From Candidatus Nealsonbacteria bacterium (GTDB lineage: Bacteria; Patescibacteriota; Minisyncoccia; Minisyncoccales; JAGMDC01): 64,000 nt of DNA. Positions 3,221-61,018 of this stretch are shown here, piece by piece. The notes beneath the pieces are model-generated. The model did not search any database, had not been told where the DNA came from, and saw only the letters and a program-made list of their open reading frames with translations. Every line of letters starts with the position of its first letter. Positions within the stretch are counted from its first letter, which is position 1. Both the position numbers and the translations under genes were made by a program. The DNA lies in assembly GCA_030612885.1 (NCBI GenBank), contig JAUWMZ010000005.1, forward strand, positions 19-64,018. Reading direction: 5' to 3'.

Positions 3221-5224
3221 ATGGACAAGAAACAGACAAAAGAAAGGATTAAAAAATTAAAAAAAGTGATACAGGAAGCAAGACACAGTTATCATGTTTT
3301 AGATAAATCAATAATGTCAGATGCGGCTTTGGATTCGTTGAAGCACGAACTTTATGAATTGGAGCAGAAATATCCTGAATTTATCACTGCTGATTCTCCA
3401 AGCCAGAGGATAGGCGGAAAGCCCTTGGAGAAATTTAAAAAACTTCGCCACATTGTTTCTCAATGGTCGTTTAATGATGTTTTTGATGAAAGCGAAATAA
3501 AGAACTTTGATCAAAGAATGGCAAGAGAGATTGGCAATAAAGAAGTTGATTACACTGCTGAACTGAAAATTGACGGCATGCATATTATTTTAACCTATGA
3601 AAAAGGGGTATTCAAAACTGGAGCAACCAGAGGCGATGGAAAAATAGGCGAGGATGTTACACAGAATCTGAAAACCATTGAATCAATTCCCCTGCGCTTA
3701 AAAAAGGCTCTTGATATTGTTGTTGAAGGAGAGATTTTTATGAGAAAATCAGTTTTTAATAAGTTAAATAAAAAGAGAAAAAGATTAAATCAGCCATTAT
3801 TTGCCAATCCCAGAAATGCGGCAGCTGGCGCAATTCGCCAGCTTAATCCCATGATTGCTGCTGAACGTCAACTTGACTGCTTTATTTATGATTATTCCTG
3901 GCCGGAAAAAAACATTCCTCTTAGCCAGTTTGAAGAATTAAAAAGATTAAAAGAACTGGGTTTTAAAGTAAATAAAAAATTTCATTATTGCCAGAACATA
4001 GACAAAGTAATTGAATTCTGGAAAGATTGGCAGAAAAAAAAGGATTCAGAGGATTATTGGGTTGATGGAATTGTGGTTAAAGTAAATAAGCGGGAATATC
4101 AAAATATGCTGGGCTATACTGGTAAAGCGCCCAGATGGGCGATTGCTTTCAAATGGCCCGGAGAGCAGGCAACAACAGCCTTGGAAAAAGTAGTTTTTCA
4201 GGTTGGCAGAACTGGAAAAATAACACCAGTGGCTTGGCTCAAACCAGTTAATATCAAAGGAACAATTGTTTCCAGGGCAACCCTGCATAACGCTGATGAA
4301 ATTAAGCGACTGGGAGTGAAGATAAAAGACACTGTCATTGTTGAAAAAGCTGGTGATGTTATCCCTCATATTATTAGATTTATTCCAGAGCTAAGGCCAA
4401 AAAACGCCAAAGAAATTCAAACACCCGGTGTTTGTCCTATTTGCGGCTCAAAAGTGATAAGAATAAAAGGAGAAGTGGCTCATTATTGTTCAAATAAAAA
4501 ATGCGGAGCCAGACAAAAGAATAAGCTCTCTTGGTTCGTTTCTAAAAAGGCGTTTGACATTGAAGGCTTAGGACCAAAAATTATTAACCAGCTAATGGAC
4601 GAAGGCCTGATTTCTAAGGCCTCTGATATTTTTTCCTTAAAACAAGGCGATTTAGAATCCTTGGAAAGATTTGCTGAAAAGTCATCTTTTAATTTAATAA
4701 GCGCGATTGAAAAGAGCAAGGCAATAACATTGCCGAAATTTATTATCTCTTTGGGAATTAAATATATTGGAGAAGAAACTGCTGAACTATTGGCTGAAAA
4801 AATAACAGATATTAAAAAAATACCCCAAGAAAATTTAGAACAAATTAAAGGCATAGGTCCAAAGGCAGCAAACAGTATTAAGCATTGGTTTTCACAAAAA
4901 GAAAATATTGATTTATTAAAAGAACTGGAAAAAGCAGGCATCAGAATAAAAAAAGAAAAGCTTGCCCCGCATCGTCCAAGCGAAGCGAGGACTGGTGCAG
5001 GGTTGAAAGATAAAATATTTGTTTTCACTGGAGAAATGGAATCAATATCCAGGGAAAAAGGAAAAGAAAAAGTAAAAGCGTTAGGAGGAAAAACCCATAA
5101 TTCAATAAGCAAAAATACTGATTTTCTGGTTTTAGGCCAAAATCCTGGCTCTAAGTATGAAAAAGCAAAGAATTTAGGAATAAAAATAATTTCTGAAAAA
5201 GAATTTTTAGACATTATTAAATGA
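3221..5224 (+). CDS. ligA: NAD-dependent DNA ligase LigA
   Basis: Adenylation motif ELKIDG, OB fold, Zn finger CPICGS...C..KKC, HhH repeats and a C-terminal BRCT (KIFVFTGEM...LGGK). Start moved from TTG 3185 to ATG 3221 because 3185-3214 is a promoter-like repeat. Confidence 0.95.
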   Translation: MDKKQTKERIKKLKKVIQEARHSYHVLDKSIMSDAALDSLKHELYELEQKYPEFITADSPSQRIGGKPLEKFKKLRHIVSQWSFNDVFDESEIKNFDQRMAREIGNKEVDYTAELKIDGMHIILTYEKGVFKTGATRGDGKIGEDVTQNLKTIESIPLRLKKALDIVVEGEIFMRKSVFNKLNKKRKRLNQPLFANPRNAAAGAIRQLNPMIAAERQLDCFIYDYSWPEKNIPLSQFEELKRLKELGFKVNKKFHYCQNIDKVIEFWKDWQKKKDSEDYWVDGIVVKVNKREYQNMLGYTGKAPRWAIAFKWPGEQATTALEKVVFQVGRTGKITPVAWLKPVNIKGTIVSRATLHNADEIKRLGVKIKDTVIVEKAGDVIPHIIRFIPELRPKNAKEIQTPGVCPICGSKVIRIKGEVAHYCSNKKCGARQKNKLSWFVSKKAFDIEGLGPKIINQLMDEGLISKASDIFSLKQGDLESLERFAEKSSFNLISAIEKSKAITLPKFIISLGIKYIGEETAELLAEKITDIKKIPQENLEQIKGIGPKAANSIKHWFSQKENIDLLKELEKAGIRIKKEKLAPHRPSEARTGAGLKDKIFVFTGEMESISREKGKEKVKALGGKTHNSISKNTDFLVLGQNPGSKYEKAKNLGIKIISEKEFLDIIK

Positions 5225-6369: not shown

Positions 6370-8886
6370 ATGAAAAACGATTCGGAAAAAGAAAAAACAA
6401 AAGAAAAAATAACTGAAATTGGTTATGTAAAGCCCAGAGAAATTACTGAAGAGATGAAAGAATCATATATTGATTATGCTATGTCAGTAATTGTTGCTCG
6501 GGCTTTGCCTGATGTCAGGGACGGCTTAAAGCCGGTTCACCGCCGAATTTTGTATGCGATGTTGGAAGATGGCCTGCGTTACGATGCCAAATTTAGAAAA
6601 TCAGCTACAGTAGTGGGCTCAGTTTTAGGCCGCTATCATCCCCATGGCGATATGGCTGTTTATGATTCCTTAGTGCGAATGGCACAGGATTTTTCTTTAA
6701 GATATCCTTTAATTAAAGGCCAAGGAAATTTTGGAAGTTTGGATTCGGACCCTCCGGCTGCGAGTCGTTATACGGAGTGCAAGCTCTCTAAAATTGGTGA
6801 AGAGACATTAAGAGATATTACTAGAGAGACAGTGGATTTTAGGGATAATTATGACGGCACTCGGAAAGAGCCGACAGTATTACCGTCGCCAATGCCTCAG
6901 CTTTTATTAAACGGCTCTTTGGGCATTGCTGTGGGAATGATGACTAATATTCCTCCTCATAATTTAACAGAAGTGACTAAAGCTGCTATTTATTTAATTG
7001 ATAATCCTAAAACAACCACTGAAGACCTTTTTAACTTCATCAAGGGTCCGGATTTCCCTACCGGCGGCATTATCTATAATAGAAAAGAAATTATTAGCGC
7101 ATATTGCCAGGGTAATGGACCAATAGTAATGAGGGGGAAAACAGAAACATCTGAAGATAAAAAAGGGAGAAACAGGATTTTAATTACCGAGATTCCCTAT
7201 CAGGTTCAGAAATCATCTTTGGTAGAACAGTTTGCCAAGCTGGTTCAAGAGAAAAAAATTACAGGGGTAAAGGATATTAGAGATGAATCAGACAGAGAGG
7301 GTATGAGAATTGTTATTGAGCTTCAGCGAGATGCTTTTCCTCAGAAAATTCTCAATCGGCTTTATAAATTTTCTGACCTTCAAAAAACCTTTCACTTGAA
7401 TATGCTTGCTTTAGTGGATGGTATCCAACCCAAGGTTTTATCCCTTTTAGAAGTTTTAAATTACTTTGTTTTACACCGTAAAGAAGTAGTAATAAGGAGA
7501 GCAAAATATGATTTGAGAAAAGCAGAAGAAAGAGCCCATATTCTGGAAGGCCTGCATAAATGCTTGTCAAAGATTGATGCGGTTATCAAAACAATTAAAG
7601 CATCGGCTAATAGGGAAGATGCGCTGAAGAATTTAATGAAGAAGTTTAAACTAACCGAGATTCAAGCCAATGCTATTTTGGAAACAAGGCTTTCTGCTTT
7701 AGCCAAATTGGAAAGAAAAAAGATTGAAGAAGAGTTGGCAGAAAAAGAAAGGCTAATCAAAGAGTTAAAGACGATTTTAAAAAGTCCTCAAAAAGTAAAA
7801 GAAGTAGTTAAAAAAGAGCTTAGAGAAGTGATAGAGAATTTTGGAGATGAAAGGAAAACCAGGGTAGTTGTTCAGAAAATTGGTGAGATTGCTGAAGAGG
7901 ACTTGATTCCCCAGGAAGAAACCATTATTACCTTAACTCGAGGCGGGTATATCAAGAGAGTAAATCCTAATGTCTATAAAATTCAGAAAAGAGGAGGCAA
8001 AGGCATCATGGGAATGAAAACCTTGGGAGAAGATATTATTGAGCATTTTCTTTTTTGCCAGACCCATGATTTTCTGCTTTTCTTTACTGATTCCGGTAAA
8101 GTTTTTAAAATTCCGGCTTATGAAATTCCTGAAGGAACGAGAGTGGCTAAAGGCAGAGGACTTTTGAATTTCTTGGAGCTTACTCCGCAAGATAAGATAT
8201 TATCTATTCTTCCTTTTGAAAAAGAAGACAATAACAATAAATCCGTCAACTTACGCAAAGAAAACAGAATGAAGTATTTAGTAATGGTGACAAAAAATGG
8301 TATGATAAAGAAAACGGCCTTAGATGAATTTGAAAATGTTAGAAGATCTGGCCTCATTGCCATCAATCTTAAGAAAGGTGACTTACTTAGAAGCGTAAAT
8401 AGAACCTCTGGCCAAGATGAAATAGCATTGGTAACCAAAAAAGGACAATCAATTAGGTTTAAGGAGGATAATGTTCGAGCTATGGGTAGGACAGCTGCTG
8501 GAGTGACTGGAATAAGATTAAAGAAAGACGATGAACTAATTGTAATGGATGTTATAAAAACCCAAAATATAAAAGAAAAAACACAAAATTATTTAATGGT
8601 GGTAAGTGAAAACGGATATGGAAAGAGGACTGATTTGAAAGAATATAGATTACAGACAAGAGGCGGCTCTGGCATAAAAACAGCTAATATTACTGATAAA
8701 ACAGGAGATTTGGTTGCTTCCAAAGTGCTTTTCGGTGAAGAAGAAGATTTAGTTGTTATTTCACAAAAGGGACAGATAATTAGAACTCCTATTAATTCTA
8801 TTTCCATAATCAGCAGGTCAACCCAAGGAGTAAGAATAATGCGTTTAGATAAAGGAGATAAAGTGGTATCTGGCGCCTGCACCTGA
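6370..8886 (+). CDS. gyrA: DNA gyrase subunit A
   Basis: [34 protein letters not shown] and the active-site region AASRYTE, plus C-terminal beta-pinwheel repeats. 838 aa. Confidence 0.95.
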
Positions 8887-8896: not shown

Positions 8897-8972
8897 TATC
8901 ACGAATTTTAATCACTAATTCTCACGAATAAACTTATTAGTGAATATTCGTGATTTAGATTAATGATTAATT
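8897..8972. repeat. Intergenic palindromic repeat, ATCACGAATA / TATTCGTGAT family (copy 1)
   Basis: tatcacgaat...aatcactaattctcacgaataaacttattagtgaatattcgtgatttagattaatgatt. Related copies at 26474-26569 and 57561-57650. Confidence 0.7.
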
Positions 8973-8980
8973 AGTAGTTT

Positions 8981-9562
8981 ATGAATGGTTTTATAAATCC
9001 GCAACAAATCATAAAAAAACTCAATCTGAAATCTAATATGACAGCAGTTGATTTTGGCTGCGGTTCTGGCAGCTGGGTCTTGCCTTTGGCTGAAACATTA
9101 GAAGACGGCAAGGTCTATGCCATAGATATATTAGAAGAACCCCTGTCTGCTTTGCAAGGTAAAGCAAAAGCCAAGACCTTAGAAAATATTGAAACAGTTT
9201 TAGCTGATATAGAAAAAAATTCTAAACTTGAAGATGGAATTGCTGATTTGGTTTTAATGACAGACCTTTTGTTTGAAGTTGATGATGTTGAGGCGGTTTT
9301 AGAAGAAGGAAAAAGAGTTCTTAAAAAAGGAGGAAGAATTTTAGTAGTAGATTGGAAAAAAGATGTTGCTTTGGGTCCTAAGGAGGGGAGGGTCTTGCCA
9401 AGCGAAATTAAAAAACTTGCCAAAGATTTAGGACTAAAATTAACAGAACCTAGCACCAGAGCAAAGCTCGGTGCTGAGCTAGTCTCACACCGAAACGAAG
9501 TTTCTGGTGCGGGGGAATTTGAGGCAGGAACTTATCACTTTGCTCTGGTGTTTGAAAAATAG
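8981..9562 (+). CDS. Class I SAM-dependent methyltransferase
   Basis: Motif I VDFGCGSGSW and post-I/II acidic residues (YAIDI, DLVLMTD). Carries a GC-rich structured insert near the C-terminus. Confidence 0.7.
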   Translation: MNGFINPQQIIKKLNLKSNMTAVDFGCGSGSWVLPLAETLEDGKVYAIDILEEPLSALQGKAKAKTLENIETVLADIEKNSKLEDGIADLVLMTDLLFEVDDVEAVLEEGKRVLKKGGRILVVDWKKDVALGPKEGRVLPSEIKKLAKDLGLKLTEPSTRAKLGAELVSHRNEVSGAGEFEAGTYHFALVFEK

Positions 9563-10625: not shown

Positions 10626-11171
10626 TTAAGTTTTTATAGTGACTTTTCTTTTCTTTTTTCTTTGAATTTTTGGAATTCTGATAGTCAAAATCCCATCTTT
10701 CATTATTGCTTCAACTCGAGAATTGTCTACTTCTTCCTGAAGTATCATCCTTTTATAAAAAGGTCCCCAATAGCACTCTTGATAAAAGTAATTTTTTTCC
10801 TCGTCTTCATTTGGTTTTTTTCTATTTCCTTCTATAGTTAGAACGTCATTTTCAATAACAATATCCAAGTTTTCCGGCCTAACTCCAGCCACGGCTGACT
10901 GAATCACTAAATCAGTTTTAGTTTGATAAACGTCAATTGCCAATTCTCCTTTTTGCTCAAACCATTTTTTTTCACCCTCCGTAGCCTTGGCGAAGGAGGG
11001 CCTTTTTTTATCTTCTATTATCGTTTCTTCAATTTCCTCTTTAATTTTTACCTTTTTCTTTTTTGCTTTTTGCTTTTTTTCTGATTTTTCTGTTTTATCC
11101 TCATTTGCTAAAATTTCAGACGATTCTTCTTCAACCCCAATATTTTTTTTTAATTTTTCTAAAAAAGACAC
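10626..11171 (-). CDS. Hsp20/alpha-crystallin family small heat-shock protein with K/E-rich N-terminal extension
   Basis: ACD signature: AIDVYQTKTDLVIQSAVAGVRPENLDIVIENDVLTIEGNRK...ILTIRIPK. Confidence 0.85.
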   Translation of the reverse strand: MSFLEKLKKNIGVEEESSEILANEDKTEKSEKKQKAKKKKVKIKEEIEETIIEDKKRPSFAKATEGEKKWFEQKGELAIDVYQTKTDLVIQSAVAGVRPENLDIVIENDVLTIEGNRKKPNEDEEKNYFYQECYWGPFYKRMILQEEVDNSRVEAIMKDGILTIRIPKIQRKKKRKVTIKT

Positions 11172-11279
11172 AGTTTATAAATTTCTAATTTCTATTAAAT
11201 TTCTAATGATTCAATTTCTAATTTTTATTTAATTGAAAATTTAGTCATTGAGAATTTAATGAAAATTGAAAATTGAAAA

Positions 11280-12075: not shown

Positions 12076-13221
12076 TTAATTTGTCCTTAAGTTAGCGTTA
12101 ACTTTAATATTTTTCCAATCTTTAGCTTCTTTTTTATGGAAATAAGCTGTTATTGCTATCATAGCGGCATTGTCAGTACAAAATTGGATATTAGGTTTTA
12201 GATACTGGATATTAGATAATTCTTTTTTGATTTTTTCTTCAAATTGTTTTCTTAATTCCTGATTAGCGGTTACACCGCCGCCGAGGATAATTGTTTTCAC
12301 TTTATAATCCTTTGCTGATTTAATGGTTTTTTTGATTAAAACATCAATTACTGATTGTTGAATTTCTCTGCACATTGCTTGGATATATATCTTTGATTTT
12401 TTAACTTTAGAGTTTTGTTTTTTAAAATTATAAAGGACAGCTGTTTTTAATCCTGAAAAACTGAAGTCGTAATCCTTTGAGTAAATCATTGGCCTGGGTA
12501 GTTTCACCCTGTTAAATAAAATCTCTGATTTTCTTTTGCTGGAAGCAAAAGATTTAACAGGGTTAATTTTAGCTGCTTCAGCAGCAATAGCTGGGCCGCC
12601 TGGGTAACCTAACCCTAAAATTCTGGCTGTTTTGTCAAAACACTCTCCAGCAGCATCATCTCTTGTTTCACCCAAAATTTTGTATTTTCCGAAATCTCGC
12701 ATCAATATCAATTGTGTGTGCCCACCAGACACAACTAAACAAACTGCAGGAAAAAGTTTTTCGCGTGGTTTCGTGTAATGTTTTGCGTTGTTTCGCGTCT
12801 CGCCAACGAAGTTGGCGAGGATATGCGCTTCAATATGGTTCACTGGTATAATTTTTATATTCCATAAATGAGCTAATGCCTTGGCAAAATTTACTCCTGT
12901 CCATAAGCATGGTTCCAATCCAGGTCCTATTGTTACGGCAATAAAATCAATTTTCGGTTTGATGAAGTTTTTTATTCCTGCCTTTTTAAAAGCTTTTTTT
13001 AAAACAGGCAAAAGATTTTTCTGGTGTTCTCTTTTTGCCATTGTCGGATACACTCCTCCATATTTCTTATGAATTTCTGCCTGCGACGAGACAATATTAG
13101 AAAGGATTTCTATTTTTTGCTTTTTGATATTTAATATACTTACGCAGGTATCATCGCAAGATGTTTCAATAGCTAAGATAATCATTGCTGTTATCTTATC
13201 ATTCAGCTTGATTTTTTTCAA
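12076..13221 (-). CDS. tsaD: tRNA N6-adenosine threonylcarbamoyltransferase TsaD
   Basis: ILAIETSCDDT, HIEAH, VSGGHTQL, GGVTAN. The start could instead be the internal Met at 13185. Contains a GC-rich in-frame insert. Confidence 0.9.
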   Translation of the reverse strand: MKKIKLNDKITAMIILAIETSCDDTCVSILNIKKQKIEILSNIVSSQAEIHKKYGGVYPTMAKREHQKNLLPVLKKAFKKAGIKNFIKPKIDFIAVTIGPGLEPCLWTGVNFAKALAHLWNIKIIPVNHIEAHILANFVGETRNNAKHYTKPREKLFPAVCLVVSGGHTQLILMRDFGKYKILGETRDDAAGECFDKTARILGLGYPGGPAIAAEAAKINPVKSFASSKRKSEILFNRVKLPRPMIYSKDYDFSFSGLKTAVLYNFKKQNSKVKKSKIYIQAMCREIQQSVIDVLIKKTIKSAKDYKVKTIILGGGVTANQELRKQFEEKIKKELSNIQYLKPNIQFCTDNAAMIAITAYFHKKEAKDWKNIKVNANLRTN

Positions 13222-13325: not shown

Positions 13326-14012
13326 ATGCATCCTAAATATAAAAAGGCAATTGAATTACGTTTAGCCGGTAAAAGTTATGGTGAGGTAGCAAAAATTTTA
13401 GATGTTTCTAAGGGTTCACTTAGTTTATGGTTTAAAAATCTAAAACTTCCGAGGGCTACTCAAAAACTTCTTGAAGAAAAAATGAGAATTGCCAGAGAGC
13501 ATAATTTATTTGAAAATAATCGGCGACGCACGCGCGCTATTAGAATCGAAAACCAACAAATAAGAAAAAATGCTTCTAATGAAATTCACTCATTATCTAA
13601 ATATGAATTATTATTGATTGGAACCGCGCTTTACTGGGGTGAAGGGTGGAAAAGACAAGATAAAAATCCAAGCCCTTATATTTGTTTTGCAAATTCTGAT
13701 CCAGATATGATAAAAGTATTTATCCGTTTTTTGCGAGAAGTTATTGGAGCACCCAAAGAGAAATTACGAGGCAATATTCATATTTATCCGAATATTGATG
13801 CAAAATCAGCTATTAATTTTTGGAGTAAGATAACAGCTATTCCAAAGGAGCGGTTTCATATTACAACCCAAGTAAGTAAAGCGAGTAAGGGAAAACGTCC
13901 TCGAAATTCACTTCCTTATGGTACGCTTAGATTAGATGTTAGTGGTCGCCCAAAATTTTTCCAAATTAAGGGTTGGATTAACGGTTTAATAAAACAAAAT
14001 AAGTTATTATAA
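13326..14012 (+). CDS. HTH domain + LAGLIDADG-like homing-endonuclease-related protein
   Basis: N-terminal HTH (LAGKSYGEVAKILDVSKGSLSLW). Later LLIGTALYWGEGWK and FANSDPDMIKVFIRFL resemble LAGLIDADG-type cores. Family call made by eye only. Confidence 0.4.
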   Translation: MHPKYKKAIELRLAGKSYGEVAKILDVSKGSLSLWFKNLKLPRATQKLLEEKMRIAREHNLFENNRRRTRAIRIENQQIRKNASNEIHSLSKYELLLIGTALYWGEGWKRQDKNPSPYICFANSDPDMIKVFIRFLREVIGAPKEKLRGNIHIYPNIDAKSAINFWSKITAIPKERFHITTQVSKASKGKRPRNSLPYGTLRLDVSGRPKFFQIKGWINGLIKQNKLL

Positions 14013-14013
14013 T

Positions 14014-16182: not shown

Positions 16183-16242
16183 TTTATATTATTATAAGAT
16201 AATTAACAATAAAACCGCAAAAACACCATTTACAAACACCGG

Positions 16243-17022
16243 GTGTTTATGAAAGAGCACAAAAAAATGAGGAACAATAAATTTTATGTGATTTTCACTG
16301 ATTTGGACGGAACTCTGCTTGATGATAATTATTCCTATAAAGATGCCTTGCCGGTTTTGAGGGTTTTAAATAAAAGAAAAATACCTCTGGTTTTCTGCTC
16401 TGCTAAAACAAAAGCAGAACAGGAATTTTTTCAAAAAAAGATGGAGATAAACCATCCTTTTATTGTTGAAAACGGTTCAGCCATCTATATTCCCAATAAA
16501 TATTTTAAAAGAGAAAAAGGAAAGAAAAAAAGTAATTATAGAATAATTGTTTTAGATAATAAATCTGATAAAATAAGAAAAGAAATTAAAAGGCTTCAAA
16601 AAAAATATAAGATAAAAGCCTTTTATGATATATCTGAAAAAGAGATTTCCAAAATAACAGGGCTTGATTTCAAAAAATCAGGATTGGCGAAACTGGCAAA
16701 GGATAGGGAATTTGGAGAAACAATAGTAGAGGCAGACAAGGAAGCATTAAAAGAATTAAAAAAGAAATTCAATGTTGTTAGCGGAGGCAGATTTATTCAG
16801 GTTTTTGGCAAAAAAGCAGATAAAGGAAAAGCAGTCAGGATATTAACTGAAATGTATAAAAAAGAGTTTAGAAAAGTAATAACCATAGGAATAGGAAATT
16901 CTGAAAACGATAAGCCAATGTTAAAAAATGTAGATGTGCCTGTTCTTCTTAAGGATGGTCCCAGAGAATGGGCGGAATTTATCCAGCACCTTTTCGAATA
17001 TCCACCGTTTGGAGTGAAGTAA
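16243..17022 (+). CDS. HAD-IIB phosphatase, mannosyl-3-phosphoglycerate phosphatase family
   Basis: FTDLDGTLLD, CSAKT and GIGNSENDKPML motifs. Neighbours a GH38 mannosidase gene. Confidence 0.6.
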   Translation: MFMKEHKKMRNNKFYVIFTDLDGTLLDDNYSYKDALPVLRVLNKRKIPLVFCSAKTKAEQEFFQKKMEINHPFIVENGSAIYIPNKYFKREKGKKKSNYRIIVLDNKSDKIRKEIKRLQKKYKIKAFYDISEKEISKITGLDFKKSGLAKLAKDREFGETIVEADKEALKELKKKFNVVSGGRFIQVFGKKADKGKAVRILTEMYKKEFRKVITIGIGNSENDKPMLKNVDVPVLLKDGPREWAEFIQHLFEYPPFGVK

Positions 17023-17075
17023 AAAAATACCCTTCCGAAAAGGTGCTGGATTTATTAAGAGTTTTGTTTTAAAAT

Positions 17076-21234: not shown

Positions 21235-21274
21235 TTTTCAAGTTTACACTGAAGAAATTAAAATTTCTGAAGTG

Positions 21275-21347
21275 TGGGCACTACAGGATTTGAACCTGTG
21301 ACCTTCTGCGTGTCGTGCAGACGCGCTAACCACTGCGCCAAGTGCCC
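21275..21347 (-). tRNA. tRNA-Val (GAC) with non-canonical C33
   Basis: GGGCACT-TG-GCGC-AGTGGTTA-GCGC-G-TCTGC-ACGACAC-GCAGA-AGGTC-ACAGG-TTCAAAT-CCTGT-AGTGCCC-A. Confidence 0.8.
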
Positions 21348-21436
21348 AATTTTGAGTTTTTTGTGGGCGTGGCAGGACTCGAACCTGCGAACCTAACGCT
21401 TATATTCGGCTTTACCGATATATATGCCAAAATGGG

Positions 21437-21630: not shown

Positions 21631-21681
21631 ACCTATTCTGACAATATAAGGACCTTGCTCTACCACTGAGCCACACGCCCA

Positions 21682-35923: not shown

Positions 35924-35927
35924 AAAT

Positions 35928-46097: not shown

Positions 46098-46152
46098 ACT
46101 ACCACGCCCGCCAGCTGGCGGAGCGGGGTATTCCCGCCGCCGAAATAATCTT

Positions 46153-50612: not shown

Positions 50613-51395
50613 ATGAAAGAAGGAAAGTTCTATATCGGAACAAGCGGGTGGGTATACTCTCATTGGGAAGGTATTTTTTATCCTGAAGATTTATCAGGGA
50701 AGGATAAATTAAAATATTTTTCAGAGCATTTTAAGACCGCGGAAGTAAATTATTCTTTTTACCATTTGCCAAAACCAATCACTTATCAAAATTGGTATAA
50801 ACAGACCCACAAAGATTTTATATTCAGTGTCAAAGCCAGTCGTTTTATTACTCATATTAAACGACTAAAGGAAGTAAAAGACCCCTGGAAAACTTTTTTA
50901 GAAAATGCTCTAAATCTTAAAGAAAAACTTGGTCCTATTTTATTCCAATTTCCCCCAAACTTTTCTGCTACCGAAGAAAATATAAAAAGATTACAAGATT
51001 TTTTGATATTAGCAGAAACCCGAGACCCGACCTCGGGATTGCAATCCCGAGGTCGGGTCTCGGTCAGATTCGCTTTTGAATTTCGGCATCAATCTTGGTG
51101 CGACTCCAAAATTTATGGATTGCTAAAAAAATACAAAGTTGCTTGGGTAATTGCTGATTCACCTTCCTTTCCAAAAGCCGAAGAAATTACTGCTGACTTT
51201 ATCTATATCAGAATGCATGGCTCAAAATTTTTGTTTTTTTCAAAATATACAGACGAAGAATTAAAAGGTTTAGCTCAAAAAATCAAAAAATGGCGAAAAG
51301 AAAACAAAGATGTTTATATTTATTTCAATAATGATGCAATGGGTAATGCTATTGAAAATGCCAAAACATTAATAAAATTTTGTGCAAGAGGTTGA
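50613..51395 (+). CDS. DUF72 family protein
   Basis: IGTSGWVYSHWEG.FYP, YF...F.T.EVN.SFY, QFPP.F, EFRH.SW, Y.Y(F)NND. Contains a perfect 19-bp hairpin in frame. Confidence 0.8.
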   Translation: MKEGKFYIGTSGWVYSHWEGIFYPEDLSGKDKLKYFSEHFKTAEVNYSFYHLPKPITYQNWYKQTHKDFIFSVKASRFITHIKRLKEVKDPWKTFLENALNLKEKLGPILFQFPPNFSATEENIKRLQDFLILAETRDPTSGLQSRGRVSVRFAFEFRHQSWCDSKIYGLLKKYKVAWVIADSPSFPKAEEITADFIYIRMHGSKFLFFSKYTDEELKGLAQKIKKWRKENKDVYIYFNNDAMGNAIENAKTLIKFCARG

Positions 51396-51593
51396 CCCCG
51401 CACCTTTTCATGACTGACTTCGTCAAATTGTGCAAAGCACAGTCATAAAAAGGTGCGGGGTTGACAAAGATTCTTGATGTATTAGTATCTAAAACAGAGG
51501 TGAGGATGGAGGACCTCTACCATTCCCAATTAAATAGGGGAATAAGGAAAAGAAAGATATGTTGGAAAAAAATAGGAGGTGAAAAGAAAAAAA

Positions 51594-54250: not shown

Positions 54251-56053
54251 ATGAAGAATCAGGAATTAGCTCAAATATTTTATGAAATTGCTGATTTCTT
54301 AGAAATGGAAGGAATAGCATTTAAACCCTACGCTTATCAGAAAGCAGCTATTAGCTTAGACACTCTAGAAGAAGATGTAGCTGAAATTTATAAAAGAGGG
54401 GGATTAAAGGCATTGGAGAAAATTCCGGGAGTGGGCAAAAGCATTGCTGAAAAGATTAAGGAATACCTAAAGACCGGAAAAATTAGATATTACCAGGATT
54501 TGAAAAAGAAAATGCCAGTCCAGATAGAAGAGCTAATTGCTATTGAAGCTGTTGGACCAAAAACAGTAAAATCCCTTTATGAATCTCTGAAAATAAAAAA
54601 TATAGAAGATTTGGAAAAAGCAGCTCGGTCTCACAAAATTAGGGGACTGCCCGGATTTCAAGAAAAAACAGAAAAAAACATCCTACAAGGGATTGCTTTT
54701 TTAAAAAGAAGTAAGGGTAGGTTTTTGTTAGGAGAAATTTTACCCCAGGTTAAAGAAATTTTGGGACAATTAAAGACCTTAAAAGAAGTGGAGCAAATTA
54801 ATGTGGCTGGTTCGGTCAGGCGAATGAAAGAAACTATTGGTGATGTTGATATTTTGGTGGTTTCCAAAAAACCGGAAAAAGTAATGGATTTCTTTGTCTC
54901 AATGCCGGGAATAATTAAAGTTTGGGCTAAGGGGCCAACTCGTTCTTCAATTAGAATTTACCCTCACAGCAAAAATTTTGGCGTAGGGATAAGACAGGGT
55001 TTTGATATTGATTTACGAGTAGTGGCTAAAAAAAGTTATGGCTCTGCTTTACAATATTTTACTGGTTCCAAAGAACACAATATTGCTACTCGCAGACTTG
55101 CTATAGAAAAGGGCTTAAAACTTAATGAATACGGGGTTTTTAGAGATAAGAAAATGATTGCTGGCTGGCGAGAACCTGGAGTCTATCGGGCAATTGGCCT
55201 TTCTTGGATACCTCCGGAGCTCAGAGAAAATCAAGGAGAGATTGAGGCAGTTCTTCGTCAGGTTCAAGGAAGACCAAATGGCCTGCCAAAAATCATTAGT
55301 TATCAGGATATTAAAGGCGATATTCATTGTCACTCTGATTGGGATGGAGGAAATAATTCTATTGAAGAGATGGCAGAAGCAGCCATAACAATGGGTTATG
55401 AATATTTAGGTATTACCGACCATACTAAGTTTTTAAGAATTGAGCAGGGGTTAGATGAAAAAAGATTAACCCAGCAGAAAAAAGAGATAGATAAATTAAA
55501 TTACAAACTCCCTGGACGCGAAGCGGACTCCCCGGAGGGTTGCATTCCAAACAAATTTAGAATTTTACAAGGCGCAGAAACAAATATTCTAAATGATGGC
55601 TCTATTGATATAAAGGACGAGGCCTTAAAAAAACTGGATTATGCTATTGCCGGCATTCATTCCAGTTTTAAGATGCCTAAAGCGAAAATGACCGAGCGAA
55701 TAATTAGGGCAATGAAAAACCCTTATATTAAAATTATTTCTCATCCAACAGGAAGAATTTTAAAAAAAAGAGATGAATATCAATGCGACTTTGAAAAGAT
55801 TTTAAGAGCGGCCAAGGCATTTGGAATAGTTTTAGAAATCAATTCCCAGCCCGGAAGATTAGACCTTAATGACCAGAATATCAGAAGAGCAAAAGAAATG
55901 GGCATAAAAATGGTTATCAATACAGACGCTCATCATATAAGTCATTTAAAGTTTATGGAACTGGGTATTGCCCAGGCTCGTCGGGGCTGGGCAGAAAAAA
56001 ACGATATTATCAATACTCAGCCATTAGATAAATTATTAAAAATTCTTAAGTAA
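54251..56053 (+). CDS. polX: DNA polymerase X family protein with C-terminal PHP domain
   Basis: N-terminal HhH (NQELAQIFYEIADFLEMEG...AYQKAA), GSVRR..ET.GDVDILV, then PHP DIHCHSDWDGG...GITDH...NTDAH. Confidence 0.85.
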   Translation: MKNQELAQIFYEIADFLEMEGIAFKPYAYQKAAISLDTLEEDVAEIYKRGGLKALEKIPGVGKSIAEKIKEYLKTGKIRYYQDLKKKMPVQIEELIAIEAVGPKTVKSLYESLKIKNIEDLEKAARSHKIRGLPGFQEKTEKNILQGIAFLKRSKGRFLLGEILPQVKEILGQLKTLKEVEQINVAGSVRRMKETIGDVDILVVSKKPEKVMDFFVSMPGIIKVWAKGPTRSSIRIYPHSKNFGVGIRQGFDIDLRVVAKKSYGSALQYFTGSKEHNIATRRLAIEKGLKLNEYGVFRDKKMIAGWREPGVYRAIGLSWIPPELRENQGEIEAVLRQVQGRPNGLPKIISYQDIKGDIHCHSDWDGGNNSIEEMAEAAITMGYEYLGITDHTKFLRIEQGLDEKRLTQQKKEIDKLNYKLPGREADSPEGCIPNKFRILQGAETNILNDGSIDIKDEALKKLDYAIAGIHSSFKMPKAKMTERIIRAMKNPYIKIISHPTGRILKKRDEYQCDFEKILRAAKAFGIVLEINSQPGRLDLNDQNIRRAKEMGIKMVINTDAHHISHLKFMELGIAQARRGWAEKNDIINTQPLDKLLKILK

Positions 56054-56088: not shown

Positions 56089-56538
56089 ATGGCATTTGAA
56101 AAATCTGCCGGAGCAGTAATTTTTAGAAAAGAAAAAGATAAAATTTATTATCTTCTTTTACATTATCCTTCTGGCTCAAGATCCCAGAAAGATTATTGGG
56201 ATTTTTCCAAAGGTCATATTGAAAAAGGAGAAAAACCAGAAGAGACAGCAAGAAGAGAAGCAAAAGAAGAAACAGGAATTAAAGATTTAAAATTTGTTGA
56301 AGGATTTAAAGAATGGATAAAATATTTTTTTAAATTTAAAGGAGAAAGTGTTTTTAAAATAGTCACTTTCTATTTAGCTGAAACAAAAACAAAAAAAGTG
56401 AAGATTTCTTCTGAACATATTGGCTTTCAGTGGCTGATATACGAGCAGGCGGCAGAGCGGTTTAAATTTAAAAATGCCAAAGAGATTCTTAAAAAAGCCA
56501 ATAGTTTTATTGAAAAAAGTTCTGCAGTAAATTACTGA
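56089..56538 (+). CDS. NUDIX hydrolase
   Basis: Nudix box GHIEKGEKPEETARREAKEETGI. Confidence 0.8.
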   Translation: MAFEKSAGAVIFRKEKDKIYYLLLHYPSGSRSQKDYWDFSKGHIEKGEKPEETARREAKEETGIKDLKFVEGFKEWIKYFFKFKGESVFKIVTFYLAETKTKKVKISSEHIGFQWLIYEQAAERFKFKNAKEILKKANSFIEKSSAVNY

Positions 56539-56539
56539 C

Positions 56540-56569
56540 TTGATATATCAGACTAAAGTCTGTTATAAT
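56540..56569 (+). promoter_or_regulatory. Second exact copy of the 30-nt promoter-like palindromic element
   Basis: TTGATATATCAGACTAAAGTCTGTTATAAT, identical to 3185-3214. A degenerate copy, cttggtatatcaaaccaaagtttgaaataat, follows at about 56581-56611. Confidence 0.5.
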
Positions 56570-56658
56570 AAATTAAATACTTGGTATATCAAACCAAAGT
56601 TTGAAATAATAAAGAAAAGAAAATTGTAACTTAAAAAAAGAAAAAGGAGAGAAAAAAA

Positions 56659-57560: not shown

Positions 57561-57650
57561 CCACGGATAATATCACAAATAAGAATCGCTAATTATCACA
57601 AATAAAATATTAGCGAGTATTCGTGATTTAAATTAGTGATTTATTAGTGG
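57561..57650. repeat. Intergenic palindromic repeat, ATCACGAATA / TATTCGTGAT family (copy 3)
   Basis: tatcacaaataagaatcgctaattatcacaaataaaatattagcgagtattcgtgatttaaattagtgatttattagtgg. Overlaps the infC stop. Confidence 0.65.
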
Positions 57651-58162
57651 TCAGCTTTTGTAATTATCATTGTCAATCCTCTTGGTTCTTTTTTTAATTC
57701 CCTTTCTATTTTATAGGGTATGAAATTTCCTAAAATTTCTGTAAATTTATTTATTTTTTCTCTGGCAAAACCTTGAAGAGCTTTCTCTCTTCCTCTTAAT
57801 CGCATTTCTATTCTTACTTTATTTCCTTGTTTTAAAAATTTTTCTGCCTGCTTGGCTCTTGTTTCTAAATCATGAGGGGAGATGTTAAATCCTAACTTTA
57901 TTCCTTTCATCTCTCCAGTTTTTTGTTTTTGAATTAATTTTCTTTCCTGCTTTTTTTCCGAATACTGGTATTTTCCATAATCCATTATTTTACAAACCGG
58001 TATTTCTAATTTCTCTGTAATCTGTATTAAATCTAAATTGCGCTCACGAGCTGTTCGGAGCGCTTTTTCCAATTTAAAAACCCCTAAATTTTTTCCAGTT
58101 TCATCAACTACTCTTACTTCCCTTGCTCGTATTCTATTGTTGAACAAAGCTCTTTTAAACAA
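57644..58162 (-). CDS. infC: Translation initiation factor IF-3
   Basis: NNRIRAREVRVVDETG...LDLIQI....PVCKIMDYGKY.Y...K...K....Q.......K.I.....I..HD...K. Non-ATG (TTG) start, as is common for infC. Confidence 0.9.
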   Translation of the reverse strand: MFKRALFNNRIRAREVRVVDETGKNLGVFKLEKALRTARERNLDLIQITEKLEIPVCKIMDYGKYQYSEKKQERKLIQKQKTGEMKGIKLGFNISPHDLETRAKQAEKFLKQGNKVRIEMRLRGREKALQGFAREKINKFTEILGNFIPYKIERELKKEPRGLTMIITKADH

Positions 58163-58181
58163 ATTATTTTATATATAATAG

Positions 58182-58585
58182 TGGAAGTGAGGGCATCGAA
58201 GCCCTGTCCAGAAATTTTGCCAAAATATTTCTACAAGTTTAGTCCATTTTATTTTTTCGGAATACTGAATAAAGAACGAACAAAATTTCAATATTCTTAG
58301 CCTCTATGTTTTTCCCAGTCCTTTAAGACAAGAGGAATGGGTATCTCGCTGAATATAACACCTGAATTTCGCTTAGCGAGAATTAGCAAATCAGATGGCA
58401 TTACGATTAAACGTAAGCAGGAGCTAAATTTGAGCAGTGTGGCCATTCGCTTAACGCGTTGCCAAGTGCCATTTTAGCTTTAGAAAATAAGTTGACACTT
58501 ATTTTTTTTCTCAAAGTTTTGCGAGATTTGAGAAAACTCGACTTGCATACTTTGACTCAAATTTCTGTCGAGACCTGACACTCCC
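58182..58585 (-). ncRNA. ssrA: tmRNA (SsrA)
   Basis: 5' GGGAGTGTCAGGTCTCGACAG... pairs with 3' ...CACTTCC-A, giving a 7-bp acceptor with the G3:U70 alanine identity pair. T arm AGGGC-TTCGATG-GCCCT. Lies 4 nt downstream of smpB. About 404 nt. Confidence 0.75.
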
Positions 58586-58588
58586 GTC

Positions 58589-59038
58589 TTAGATTTTCTC
58601 TTTAATAATTCTTTCTTTTTCTATTTCAAATTCTCTTTTTTTTATTTTTTCTCTTTTATCAATTTTCTTTTTGCCTTTTACTAATCCAAATAATAATTTT
58701 ATTTTTCCTCTCTTAGTATACATCTTTAAGGGTATTAAAGTCAAGCCCTTTTGCCTTGATTTCCCGATTAAAGATTTAATTTCTGTTTTTCTCAAAAGCA
58801 GTTTTCGGGAGCGTTCTGGACTGTAATCAGATGGAGCGTTTTTTGGCTGATAAGGAGGGATATTAGCGCCAATTAAAAACATTTCTTGATTTTTTATCAC
58901 AACATAGGAACCTTTTAAACTAATATGGCCGGTTTTAATCGCTTTTACTTCTTGGCCAATCAAAACTATACCTGCTTCATAGGTTTCTAAAATTTCATAA
59001 TCGAAATACGCTTTTTTATTTTGAGCTAAGATTTTCAT
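58589..59038 (-). CDS. smpB: SsrA-binding protein SmpB
   Basis: MKILAQNKKAYFDYEILETYEAGIVL.G.EVK....G..SL..SYV......E..L....I.PY. Start set at 59038. Confidence 0.9.
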   Translation of the reverse strand: MKILAQNKKAYFDYEILETYEAGIVLIGQEVKAIKTGHISLKGSYVVIKNQEMFLIGANIPPYQPKNAPSDYSPERSRKLLLRKTEIKSLIGKSRQKGLTLIPLKMYTKRGKIKLLFGLVKGKKKIDKREKIKKREFEIEKERIIKEKI

Positions 59039-59121
59039 CAATTTTATTGTATCAATTCCACACCTGCTTGACAAATTTGAGTTTAGGGAATATCCTAAAA
59101 ATAGGAGGTTGAGAATAAAAA

Positions 59122-59295
59122 ATGATAGTAAAATCTTTGTTTTGGGTAATAGTATTCTGTATGATTTTGTTGCTTTGGATCTACATAGGCGATTGGACAT
59201 GGGTTATTGTAGTAGCGACAGGGGGAATTATTGTAGTGGCAAGTTACATTTATAGAGCTGTTAAGTTAAGGGATACCAAAACTATAGAACATTAA
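59122..59295 (+). CDS. Possible small membrane protein (57 aa), absent from the ORF track
   Basis: AGGAGG at 59103-59108, 13 nt upstream of ATG 59122. Sequence MIVKSLFWVIVFCMILLLWIYIGDWTWVIVVATGGIIVVASYIYRAVKLRDTKTIEH*. Two hydrophobic helices. Confidence 0.35.
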   Translation: MIVKSLFWVIVFCMILLLWIYIGDWTWVIVVATGGIIVVASYIYRAVKLRDTKTIEH

Positions 59296-59383: not shown

Positions 59384-61018
59384 ATGAATATGATTAGAGA
59401 AGATATAAGAAATTTAATTGAAAAAGCTATTAAAGAAGCGCAGAAAGAGAAAAAACTGCCGAAGTTTAAAATTAATAAGGTTTTAATTGAGCATCCGGAA
59501 AATAAAAAATTTGGTGATTATTCTACAAATACTGCTATGCAGATTAGCAAAACCCTTAAGAAAGATCCAATGGAAATATCAAAAATAATCAATAATCGAT
59601 TATCAATTATTAATCCAAAGTTTTTAGAAAAGATTGAGATTGCCAAGCCAGGGTTTATTAATTTTTTTATTTCTAAAGAATTCTTGCAAAACCAAGTTTT
59701 AGATATTTTAAAAAAAGAAGAGAAATTTAGTGATTTAGCTCTCGGCAGAAAGAAAAAAATTCAGATAGAATTTATTTCAGCCAATCCTACCGGTCCTTTA
59801 ACTATTGGTAATGCCAGAGGAGGACCGTTTGGCGATGTTCTTGGCAATGTTTTTAAAAAAGCAGGATTTAAAATAGAGAAAGCGTATTATATAAATGATT
59901 TTGGAAAACAGATTTTAGCTCTTGGCCATTCTGTTTTAAAAGATAAAGAAGCGGTTTATAAAGGGGAATACATTAATGAACTTAATAAAAAAATACTTGC
60001 CCGCAGTAATGCACGAAGTGTTTTAGGCGGGAAAGAAAAAGATTCCCTCAAAGTCGGGCAAAAAGCAGCAAAGATTATTATAGATGAAATGATTAAAAAA
60101 ACAGTCAGGAAAATGGGAATTAAATATGATAAATGGTTTTTTGAAAGCCAGCTTCATAAAACTGGAAAAGTTGATGAAATAATAGAGTTTTTAAAAAAGA
60201 AAAAGCTGGTTTATAAAAAAGATGGAGCTTTATGGTTTAAGTCCTCAAAGTATAACGACAATAGAGACAGGGTGTTAGTTAAACAAGATGGTTCTAAAAC
60301 ATATTTAGCTGGAGATATTGCCTATCATAGACATAAGTTTGAAAAAGAAAAATTTACTAAAGTGATAGATGTTTGGGGAGCGGACCATTATGGAGATATT
60401 TCAGGACTAAAGGCTGGAACAGAAGCTTTAGGATATAAAGATAAACTGGAAATTATTCTCCATCAGTTTGTAACTATTCTAAGAAAAGGGGAGAAGCAAA
60501 GAATGTCAAAAAGAAAAGGAGTTTATTATACTATGGATGAGCTGCTTGATGAAGTTGGTTCTGATGTAATGAGGTTCTTTTTTCTGCAAAAATCTATAAA
60601 TACACATTTGAATTTCGACATAGCATTAGCCAAAGAACAGTCAGAGAAAAACCCGGTTTATTATATTCAATATGCATACGCCAGAATACACAGCATTTTG
60701 CGCAAAGCGCAAAATAATTATCAATTATCAATTATCAATTTTCAATTATTAAAACATCCGAGTGAATTGAATTTAATAAAACAGCTTATTAGATTTCCGG
60801 AAGTTGTTGAAGACACTGCTAAAGATTATCAGGTTCAGAGAATTCCTCAATACGCTTTTGGTTTAGCTTCAGCTTTTCACCAGTTCTATCGTGACTGCAA
60901 AGTTATTACAGAAGACAAAGCGCTTTTTCAAAGCCGTTTAGTTTTAATTGAGGCGACTAAAGTTGTTTTAAAAAATACCCTTGATTTAATGGGTATTTCA
61001 GCGCCAAAAAAAATGTAG
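59384..61018 (+). CDS. argS: Arginine--tRNA ligase
   Basis: EFISANPTGPLTIGNARG (HIGH-type region), DHYGD, the MSKRKG variant of KMSKS, and a C-terminal DALR anticodon-binding domain. Confidence 0.9.
   Translation: MNMIREDIRNLIEKAIKEAQKEKKLPKFKINKVLIEHPENKKFGDYSTNTAMQISKTLKKDPMEISKIINNRLSIINPKFLEKIEIAKPGFINFFISKEFLQNQVLDILKKEEKFSDLALGRKKKIQIEFISANPTGPLTIGNARGGPFGDVLGNVFKKAGFKIEKAYYINDFGKQILALGHSVLKDKEAVYKGEYINELNKKILARSNARSVLGGKEKDSLKVGQKAAKIIIDEMIKKTVRKMGIKYDKWFFESQLHKTGKVDEIIEFLKKKKLVYKKDGALWFKSSKYNDNRDRVLVKQDGSKTYLAGDIAYHRHKFEKEKFTKVIDVWGADHYGDISGLKAGTEALGYKDKLEIILHQFVTILRKGEKQRMSKRKGVYYTMDELLDEVGSDVMRFFFLQKSINTHLNFDIALAKEQSEKNPVYYIQYAYARIHSILRKAQNNYQLSIINFQLLKHPSELNLIKQLIRFPEVVEDTAKDYQVQRIPQYAFGLASAFHQFYRDCKVITEDKALFQSRLVLIEATKVVLKNTLDLMGISAPKKM

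Follow-up and report, generated by a model that had tools for sequence, protein, structure and literature searches.

Conserved housekeeping genes in a 64,000-nucleotide (nt) stretch of Candidatus Nealsonbacteria bacterium DNA (contig JAUWMZ010000005.1; hereafter the window) are interrupted in frame by short, GC-rich DNA palindromes. The window belongs to the Parcubacteria, within the Patescibacteria or candidate phyla radiation (CPR), and has a GC content of 33%. Comparison with related genomes revealed that these palindromes differ in presence, length and sequence between close relatives, and that several of their arms were copied from the host genes themselves. We favor, with some reserve, an explanation in which two processes act jointly, namely the seeding of short palindromic repeats at new sites and their growth in place by template switching. 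An earlier reading of the window (the original prediction) had taken the palindromes for inserted elements; this is largely right, but a substantial part of the phenomenon is in-place palindrome growth and not insertion. The palindromes are best filed as a variant of in-frame palindromic repeats, similar in kind to those of Rickettsia and probably grown by template switching.

The window carries tRNAs, a tmRNA and housekeeping genes, as annotated with Pfam and Rfam. Pfam confirmed the identities of LigA, an S-adenosylmethionine (SAM) methyltransferase, TsaD, RecG, a REC-domain protein, an Elp3-like radical SAM protein, DUF72, PolX and ArgRS, and a PDB search confirmed EndoQ as a true homologue. 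The closest relatives of the window DUF72 and LigA proteins come from metagenome-assembled genomes of Candidatus Parcubacteria / Patescibacteria. The orthologous DNA that we compared came from 80 genome loci near DUF72 and from 56 metagenome loci near tsaD, with extra contigs added via exact protein look-up. These related loci are given L-numbers and sample 10–20 kb per related genome; L001 represents the closest relative of the window, with about 80–85% protein identity and 20 kb of synteny. A second ENA assembly, made independently from the same strain, agrees with the window at 99.95% identity over 14 kb, with 7 single-nucleotide polymorphisms and no indels; thus, the window palindromes are not assembly artefacts.

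All patch sequences quoted in the original prediction lie at the positions it gave, in frame in the genes it named. Folding was assessed by shuffling each patch alone, so that its own GC content was controlled. Nine of the ten listed gene patches are palindromic beyond composition-matched chance, most strongly those of EndoQ, DUF72 and recG, followed by REC, tsaD, Elp3, the methyltransferase, ligA and argS, whereas the tenth, in PolX, is GC-rich but not a hairpin (Table 1). Among 50-nt folding windows, the EndoQ and DUF72 palindromes are two extreme outliers. Palindromes exceed the expectation from composition: the window contains 15 GC-rich hairpins with a stem of at least 8 bp, compared with 4–5 expected from shuffles that keep local GC, and its longest stem reaches 20 bp against at most 12 in such shuffles. 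Additional sites beyond the earlier list are the second tsaD site, the small EndoQ hairpin and the spacers at 2175–2193 and 29748–29776. Chance, a composition effect, or an artefact of assembly or amplification has a practically negligible probability as a source of the palindromes. Single-cell or amplified DNA can hold chimeric inverted repeats, and some of the 14–15-nt 'families' may be coincidental given that a palindrome holds only half its length as information. However, the counts lie above those of local-composition-preserving shuffles, the independent assembly agrees without indels, and the elements are shared, with substitutions, by relatives that were assembled in other projects.

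Two themes of the original prediction were not borne out. The GAA triloop is neither significantly enriched nor a defining trait, in the window or in the hairpins of related genomes. GCGAAGC occurs 7 times in the window against 3.2 expected, a count reached by 8 of 100 shuffles; three GAA triloops have a stem of at least 5 bp, the same number as for AAA; and among 94 related-genome hairpins GAA (2) is less common than TTC (5) and AAA (4). Nor do the palindromes form one family, as most are unique in sequence. Among 214 GC-rich hairpins, 155 of which lie inside long open reading frames (ORFs), 135 are singletons and 79 cluster, mainly with their own orthologous copies. Enrichment of 5-mers in the hairpin arms is mild, about 3-fold, and concerns CCGCC, CCCGA and CCCGC only.

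Orthologue comparison revealed presence/absence polymorphism of the inserts in ligA, the methyltransferase gene, tsaD, recG, EndoQ, DUF72, PolX and argS. For REC, insertion is seen as a gap in an alignment to PhoB, its sole support, where the palindrome adds about 4 residues ahead of the DLILLD strand; the Elp3 hairpin, against the prediction, brings no change of length. Translated inserts measure 4–27 residues. Two genes call for a revision of the earlier reading: the gain in ligA is only about 7 residues when compared with most Parcubacteria LigA, or 4 against E. coli LigA, and Elp3 gains none. The 66 nt in the methyltransferase gene are missing, with clean boundaries, from 7 of 7 orthologues, and the 36 nt in argS are common to the window and L001 and precisely missing in L148 and L013. 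Insert-free base states were found for recG (LCQK-KEFIPHLL, three orthologues), PolX (KFK-GFKVL, four orthologues) and EndoQ (seven orthologues and the P. furiosus EndoQ structure). Likewise, the DUF72 loop is short in the shortest Parcubacteria homologues, in other phyla and in the TM1631 structure. Two tsaD inserts were measured against T. maritima TsaD, site 1 adding 11 residues and site 2 adding 15; the latter is AT-richer than the other inserts, and many Patescibacteria have multi-hairpin inserts of 27–52 residues at this position. In ligA, one relative at 85% identity alone shares the insert and keeps the hairpin, and another at 84% has PPAGGA instead.

Alignments to solved structures and an AlphaFold model placed the patches in loops or linkers, in agreement with the original prediction. 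In the DUF72 model (pLDDT 85), the insert lies between the helix of residues 121–135 and the strand of residues 153–156, in a loop of low local confidence; a peptide spanning it is, for example, ETRDPTSGLQSRGRVSV. A survey of 121 DUF72 homologues (65–82% identity) revealed a single dominant site, with inserts of 1–24 residues and 84 distinct sequences in 99 of the 121, while each remaining site varies in just one or two homologues. At the same codon position, relatives carry other GC-rich hairpins, tandem repeats or nothing, as seen for DUF72, EndoQ, PolX, recG and three tsaD sites, and similar turnover occurs at one site of a putative Mur-type ligase gene. For instance, the recG gene of a relative at 76% identity has another, perfect 15-bp hairpin at the position of the window insert; EndoQ of a relative at 84% has GGGGGAGGCC-CGG-CCTCCCCC where the window has its hairpin; and the PolX position is occupied by a heptamer repeat in L001, a TTAGGG-like repeat in L011 and a 66-nt element in L005. 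Short tandem repeats of 6–14 nt are found at the same sites as hairpins.

Between the window and L001, most indels of at least 4 residues consist of hairpin-forming or tandem-repeat DNA. Among 352 unique orthologue indels, 9.7% fold strongly (minimum free energy per nt of -0.3 or lower) compared with 1.8% of matched control segments. The mean GC content of these indels is 0.360, compared with 0.352 for genes; because it is not raised, the hairpin inserts represent a distinct subclass, about one in ten indels. Taken together, in this genome and in Patescibacteria generally, the parts of housekeeping genes that code for surface loops and linkers are indel hot spots, at which short and predominantly GC-rich palindromes form, lengthen and are replaced.

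Inserts of this kind would also result if selection on the protein had favored ordinary, lineage-specific loop extensions that are palindromic only by coincidence; insert-bearing loops and linkers vary somewhat in other phyla too, and the indels resemble genes in mean GC. Nevertheless, this explanation is very improbable. Coincidence cannot account for 20-bp stems with z about -10, the same sequences are present in spacers, and one DNA repeat read in different frames gives unrelated peptides. The core palindrome introduced below yields RKSDF, EVGLP or GSPTS according to its frame and strand, and the tail ACAACGCAAAACA, which adjoins both the tsaD and the Elp3 hairpin, has a different frame in each of the two genes.

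Comparison of the arms with the adjoining codons revealed that several palindromes were written from host sequence. The original prediction held the tsaD and Elp3 patches to be foreign GC-rich inserts, whereas their arms are host coding sequence; more generally, its view of the patches as inserted elements stands for the eight polymorphic genes, but the tsaD, Elp3 and recG palindromes and the left arms of the EndoQ and DUF72 palindromes are inverted copies of adjacent host sequence. At tsaD site 1, the conserved HI(L/F)ANF codons make up the 5' arm, and their inverted copy makes up the 3' arm. The copied arm covaries with the local LANF, FANF or VANW codons in four lineages (the window, L102, L125 and L097), with the arm pairs TTCGCCAAC/GTTGGCGAA and GTTGCCAACTGG/CCAGTTGGCAAC in the latter three. 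The hairpin is followed by an A-rich tandem repeat of about 10 nt (ACGCGAAAC/AACGCAAAAC). In Elp3, where orthologues have nine ordinary codons, these nine codons were turned into a 12-bp hairpin whose 3' arm is near to the orthologues and whose 5' arm is its complement; of the adjoining tandem-repeat tail, L001 carries one further unit. The recG insert has a 12-bp outer stem, AATGAGGGACAG/CTGTCCCTCATT, which encloses a tandem GGGACAGGGGA repeat, and its 3' arm overlaps the conserved IPH codons, including the Ile codon.

The two strongest hairpins show the same relationship. Three relatives have a shorter EndoQ insert, to which the right arm of the long hairpin is homologous; the further 27 nt found in the window, the left arm, are an inverted copy of that right arm. 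For DUF72, relatives present a series that runs from no insert through a 15-nt core palindrome and a single arm, CGAAGTCGGGTCTCGG, to a full hairpin with CGAAGTCGGGTCTCGG as its right arm. Furthermore, in the IleRS-like gene of L001 a stretch of 18 nt is followed by its own inverted copy of equal length, and tsaD site 3 has a 12-nt core whose flanks have been converted to complementarity, with a mirrored A/T change at symmetric positions in one lineage. Judged by their sequence pattern, such inverted copies of adjacent sequence are rather probably the signature of replication template switching at quasi-palindromes, accompanied by slippage. Template switching perfects quasi-palindromes in E. 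coli (PMC7202029), is able to create and maintain hairpin stems (PMC8794818) and alters coding genes at quasi-palindromes in yeast (PMC8604942). The likeness to this process lies in the inverted copying that perfects repeats, in stems made by a single event and in mirrored arms, which match the tsaD, Elp3, recG, EndoQ, DUF72 and IleRS cases. It differs in scale, for quasi-palindrome template switching is known for small clustered changes, and no report describes it as generating 20-bp in-frame palindromes in the housekeeping genes of a whole genome.

The analysis places the palindromes at the level of DNA, at which they arise and are maintained, and not at that of mRNA structures or selected peptides. 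Sense-strand stem mismatches comprise 26 G·U and 27 A·C pairs, and this equality fits a DNA palindrome and not a selected mRNA stem. An Rfam search over the window brought only the tRNAs and the tmRNA to gathering scores, and the palindromes matched no model. Selection on nucleic-acid structure, be it mRNA hairpins for transcript stability or for ribosome pausing during co-translational folding, or DNA sites bound by proteins, with compensatory changes in either case, would account for palindromy that is kept while the sequence diverges, as in the DUF72 arms of the window, L003 and L002 and in the mirrored change at tsaD site 3. It would also fit the spacer core with its T-run, which resembles an intrinsic terminator, and the recurrent positions of the inserts between secondary-structure elements. 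Apart from the missing G·U excess and the lack of an Rfam match, however, the loops have no preferred sequence, close relatives have the same genes without hairpins, and other relatives have non-palindromic tandem repeats at the same site. We therefore consider such selection improbable and return to palindromes made at the DNA level.

Some of the sequences are dispersed among unrelated sites. In 0.93 Mb of sequence from Patescibacteria, the core GAAGTC[CG]GACTTC was counted 14 times, in 11 contexts, compared with zero in shuffles. Its generalised form GARGTC-S-GACYTC, allowing at most two mismatches, is matched 8 times in the window against 1.1 expected, and these matches include an exact copy at 2175 and both arms of the DUF72 and EndoQ hairpins (46889 and 46916 in the latter); the DUF72 arms are the degenerate copies GAGACCCGACCTC / GAGGTCGGGTCTC. 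Because the core is itself palindromic, a tandem pair of copies is enough for a long hairpin, as L122 exemplifies. The DUF72 arm CCGAGACCCGACCTCGG recurs inside a 75-nt Elp3 insert of L001, an insert that the window Elp3 lacks. Palindromes resembling that of REC, CCGCCAGCCGGCGG, occur at 46104–46117 of the window and three times in L022. Since a palindrome holds only half its length as information, the 14-nt CCGCCAGCYGGCGG 'family', or the REC-type likeness, is weak evidence of membership.

The longest dispersed unit is the 66-nt double hairpin of the methyltransferase gene, CCYAGCACC-AGAGC-RAA-GCTC-GGTGCTG-..CTAGT..-CRCACC-GAAAC-GAA-GTTTC-TGGTGCGGGG. It was found in five contexts, namely the methyltransferase gene, PolX of L005 (another species, with a near-identical copy), a PIMT gene, a short spacer ORF of a groundwater organism and a second L005 site, the last being a module-shuffled variant. 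Its ends, CC(C/A)GCACC...GGTGC(G/T)GG, turn up again on the ligA patch as well as on two spacer repeats, those at 16976 and 51395. The ligA insert is an imperfect hairpin, CCCCGCATCGTCC..GGACTGGTGCAGGG, with GCGAAGC at its tip and an outer stem similar to CCCGCACC/GGTGCGGG, the ends of the 66-nt element. The window contains CCGCACC 5 times, where 0.86 would be expected; two of the five, at 32561 and 36970, were rejected as elements since neither forms a hairpin. The 66-nt copies have left flanks with RAA or AAG at their end and variable right flanks, and no target motif common to the copies was seen. In the methyltransferase frame the element is rare and not a high-copy repeat: its peptide, searched as a doubled 47-residue query, was found in 3 proteins among 5.8 billion, and a full HMMER scan retrieved 2 in 1.84 billion representatives.

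Such dispersal makes classical non-autonomous mobile elements the main rival explanation. These would be elements of the miniature inverted-repeat transposable element (MITE), repetitive extragenic palindrome (REP) or Rickettsia type, moved by a transposase encoded elsewhere, for example a Y1 HUH REP-associated tyrosine transposase (RAYT) or an IS200/IS605 TnpA, and the variety at hot spots would reflect repeated insertion and decay. Identical or near-identical copies do stand in genes that are unrelated and in more than one species; conserved termini enclose variable interiors in the 66-nt element as well as in the spacer repeats at 16976 and 51395; TTGA flanks the element at 51395 on both sides; and the methyltransferase and argS inserts are cleanly bounded. 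On the other hand, Pfam detected no transposase or integrase in any window ORF, and a crude HUH-Y1 motif scan detected none in 916 ORFs of the related loci, so that the Y1/RAYT-type enzyme for which the original prediction proposed a search did not appear in either set. The five 66-nt copies have no consistent target-site duplication, copy number is very low, with 2–5 related copies per 64 kb, and the majority of hairpins have a sequence of their own. Arms made of conserved host codons and a hairpin without length change cannot be insertions. We regard mobile elements as not likely, though deserving serious attention, and they stay the main rival because a transposase may be encoded outside the sampled DNA.

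No phage link was seen in scans of viral contigs. The 66-nt junction gave no match, and the DUF72 arm gave three, all in GC-rich contigs and none palindromic. The 15-nt core matched 97 stretches, mostly in higher-GC contigs, of which one alone extends into a longer palindrome; by a rough estimate of the size of the collection, this number is near chance for a 15-mer. Our literature search found no report of such elements in CPR bacteria, nor of the core motif.

These observations enable us to propose a putative model of seeding and growth. Initially, a few short palindromic repeats, such as the 13-nt core, the 66-nt double hairpin and the DUF72-type arm, would be copied to unrelated sites and genomes, possibly by ectopic template switching or by an enzyme acting in trans. 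Afterwards, a polymerase that briefly copies the nascent or the opposite strand would leave an inverted copy of the adjacent sequence, conserved host codons included. Such template switching would create or perfect hairpins and mirror a change in one arm onto the other, and slippage alongside it would add short tandem repeats. Finally, selection would act as a filter, and survivors would be those of a length that is a multiple of three, free of stops and situated in tolerant loops. Stop codons are nearly absent from GC-rich palindromes in each of the six frames, a property that may explain why the in-gene survivors are GC-rich in a genome of 33% GC. We infer the template-switch mechanism, the route of seeding and the neutrality of the inserts, and consider the model as a whole somewhat more likely than not.

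Several points weigh against this model. Local template switching cannot explain identical sequences of 13–66 nt at unrelated loci, and a separate copying step must therefore be added. The changes seen in the arms may be losses as well as gains; GC-richness is accounted for only indirectly, through stop-free survival and stable fold-back; and selection on structure might also be what keeps palindromes perfect while sequences diverge. Moreover, with 10–20 kb sampled per related genome, a transposase could sit outside that DNA. A bolder version of seeding and growth, which we advance tentatively and with more doubt than belief, is that Patescibacteria actively make and spread palindromes without a transposase. 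In this version, seeds of 13–15 bp with the core GARGTC-S-GACYTC would be copied and then enlarged by repeated fold-back template switching, which a loss of hairpin-processing nucleases might aid. Essential proteins would have their surface loops continuously rewritten in frame, in a mode of selfish DNA distinct from MITEs, REPs and Rickettsia palindromic elements (RPEs).

The comparison with in-frame RPEs made in the original prediction is apt as an analogy. In both systems, palindromic repeats stand in frame in unrelated housekeeping genes of a small, AT-rich, gene-dense genome, add a peptide compatible with the fold and occur in spacers too, as far as the summary in PMC10969869 describes. 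According to the same summary, RPEs are about 100–150 bp long and comprise ten recognisable multi-copy families, each encoding a conserved peptide (Ogata et al. 2000, summarised in PMC10969869). In contrast, the window units measure 13–75 nt, are mostly unique and of low copy (only 2–5 related copies in 64 kb), are read in any frame, derive in many cases from host sequence and turn over at hot spots. From the size difference alone, homology to the RPE consensus is unlikely.

Other known repeats share single traits with the window palindromes. GC clusters of yeast mitochondria are likewise short, GC-rich hairpin elements of a compact AT-rich genome, polymorphic in presence, subject to merging and shuffling of modules and devoid of a transposase of their own, with their mobility unresolved (PMC4478555). 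They are organellar and mostly intergenic, form defined multi-copy families such as GC42 and use AG or TAG target nucleotides (PMC4478555), whereas the window elements are bacterial, mostly coding and show no consistent target motif. REPs and bacterial interspersed mosaic elements are imperfect palindromes of 20–40 nt, often paired (PMC3733652), a length that the window hairpins match. They are, however, extragenic and of high copy, have a conserved GTAG or CGTC tetranucleotide at one end and are accompanied by a RAYT gene (PMC3733652), while window-type hairpins are of low copy and mostly lie in long ORFs (155 of 214). Neither tag is common to the flanks of all window hairpins and 66-nt copies. 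MITEs have terminal inverted repeats and a target-site duplication; the CC(C/A)GCACC group has conserved inverted termini, TTGA flanks one copy, and the five copies of the 66-nt element show no consistent duplication. The spacer core with its T-run at 2175–2193 may resemble the terminator-like repeats of the SPRITE type, from which the in-gene palindromes differ in having no T-runs and in being translated. Double-hairpin elements have reportedly been described in fungi as well (Paquin et al. 2000).

The usual picture of CPR/Patescibacteria genomes is one of streamlining and little mobile DNA. Here, essential genes (tsaD, ligA, recG, argS, PolX and EndoQ) carry translated, fast-evolving DNA palindromes, which would make this lineage the second bacterial example, after Rickettsia, of palindromic DNA inside proteins. 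The palindromes offer natural material in which template switching would build long hairpins stepwise, a proposed route to new RNA stems and protein segments. In practice, the inserts inflate protein lengths, disturb marker-gene alignments and phylogenies, and can pass for lineage-specific functional loops; the hot spots, in turn, could serve as fine-scale strain markers. If true, transposase-free spread of palindromes would be a lineage-wide engine of in-frame loop variation.

Table 1. Palindromic and GC-rich features of the window, with z-scores of folding against shuffles of the same composition
Feature	Position	Strand	Folding and remarks
Intergenic exact core palindrome ACAGAGGTC-C-GACCTCTGT, then T7	2175–2193		resembles intrinsic terminator
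ligA, HhH-BRCT linker insert LAPHRPSEARTGAG	4961–5002	+	z -3.0
SAM methyltransferase, 66-nt double hairpin, encodes PSTRAKLGAELVSHRNEVSGAG	9449–9514	+	z -3.6
tsaD site 2, nested hairpin, 27-residue insert	12506–12566	-	z -6.2
tsaD site 1, 9-bp hairpin (12799–12819) and tail	12757–12819	-	z -4.6
recG insert	14866–14908	-	z -6.1
81-nt inverted repeat, ends CCAGCACC..GGTGCTGG	16976–17056		z -6.2; spans stop codon of HAD-hydrolase gene
Double GC-rich hairpin adjoining tRNA-Gly	25216–25266		z -4.8
REC domain, 14-nt palindrome CCGCCAGCCGGCGG (PPAGG)	26698–26711	+	z -4.7
Spacer hairpin AAATTAACGAGAA-CAT-TTCTCGTTAATTT	29748–29776		z -7.5
Elp3, 12-bp hairpin ATTACATGCTGC-TTC-GCAGCGTGTAAT and tandem-repeat tail	41553–41613	-	z -4.5
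Two GC-rich hairpins, CCGCCAGCTGGCGG and GCGGGGTATTCCCGC, ahead of EndoQ	46098–46152		z -2.0, marginal
EndoQ, small hairpin TCAACGAGAA-CGG-TTCTCGTTGA	46354–46376	+	z -5.4
EndoQ, 20-bp hairpin within 15-residue insert	46887–46930	+	z -10.6; -42.7 kcal/mol
DUF72, perfect 44-nt palindrome within 15-residue insert	51020–51063	+	z -10.4; -44.3 kcal/mol
67-nt inverted repeat, ends CCCCGCACC..GGTGCGGGG	51395–51461		z -8.6
PolX, GC-rich in-frame insert at hypervariable site	55508–55549	+	z +0.6; not a significant hairpin
argS, 36-nt hairpin insert (LARSNARSVLGG)	59996–60031	+	z -2.9

The spacer palindromes listed in Table 1 have counterparts inside genes and in relatives. The stem AACGAGAA/TTCTCGTT of the spacer hairpin at 29748–29776 is the same as that of the small EndoQ hairpin, which takes the place of 12 nt in a relative and adds 4 residues. 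Units akin to the hairpin beside tRNA-Gly, GGCGAGCCTCGCC, occur in L003 and L011, including within PolX of L011. The repeat at 51395–51461 lies immediately 3' of the DUF72 stop codon. In L022, another Patescibacteria genome, a spacer repeat of about 50 nt that contains CCGCCAGCTGGCGG has three copies in 5 kb flanking DUF72 (6456–6507, 9080–9140 and 11022–11073). The tmRNA gene stands immediately beside smpB in the window (58179–59200). Just 5' of smpB, L001 has a 70-nt inverted repeat at 16203–16277, with ends CCCCCACACC..GGTGTGGGGG, which is missing in the window. Since an in-frame stop inside an L001 hairpin lies upstream of the real smpB start, bypass or intron-like behaviour was rejected.

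Further observations concern the loop hot spots and their neighbourhood. In-frame microsatellites with units of 6–7 nt occupy the same loop hot spots in PolX of L011 (about 14000–14100), in tsaD of L097, L104, L125 and L091, and in PolX and argS of L001; they include telomere-like TTTAGGG/TTAGGG in L011 PolX as well as (CTCAAAA)4, (AAACTAC)n and (AATCCAA)n. In L021, a member of the Bacillota with 57% GC, the DUF72 loop has a 14-residue insert with a repeated GPGR motif, and the site may be prone to insertion beyond Patescibacteria. A hairpin CCCTCC..GGAGGG in the N-terminal part of hsp20 (10975–11001, minus strand; z -2.2) is a marginal candidate. An AT-rich inverted repeat of 49 nt (11175–11279), made of AATTTCTAAT-like units, lies between the hsp20 and PrsW protease genes and may be a heat-shock operator.

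Two other groups of intergenic repeats were noted. A promoter-like unit, TTGATATATCAGACTAAAGTCTGTTATAAT, is present in four copies (3171–3214, 39843–39886, 56526–56569 and 56567–56610) and has a small hairpin, CAGACTAAAGTCTG, between its -35 and -10 hexamers; it may be a shared promoter or operator. AT-rich repeats built of ATTAGTG/CACTAAT and ATTCGTGAT units (8935–8978, 25130–25180, 26514–26559 and 57595–57651) stand upstream of several genes, including those of the methyltransferase, REC and infC.

The remaining observations are from elsewhere in the window. ORFs with FG-GAP repeats (164–1453) contain tandem repeats of about 150 nt and are split over two reading frames; this region differs between near-identical strains, with 87% identity in L145 compared with 99.95% elsewhere. 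A HEPN gene beside a minimal nucleotidyltransferase gene (2347–3074) resembles a toxin–antitoxin module. On the minus strand, a 'tRNA nest' (21274–21700) holds tRNA-Val and tRNA-Ile(tat) among tandem, partial tRNA-like repeats (three of 50 nt at 21545–21694 and two of 72 nt at 21389–21532), which look like duplicated or decayed fragments of tRNA genes. The LeuRS-like gene at 35871–38000 encodes only 709 residues, and a partial match to the editing-domain profile suggests a reduced editing domain. Finally, the gene at 61021–63999 (plus strand) encodes an IleRS-like class I aminoacyl-tRNA synthetase with a His_Phos_1 (histidine-phosphatase) domain at residues 483–637, inside the catalytic domain, and the same architecture is repeated in the related genome L148 (16475–19903).

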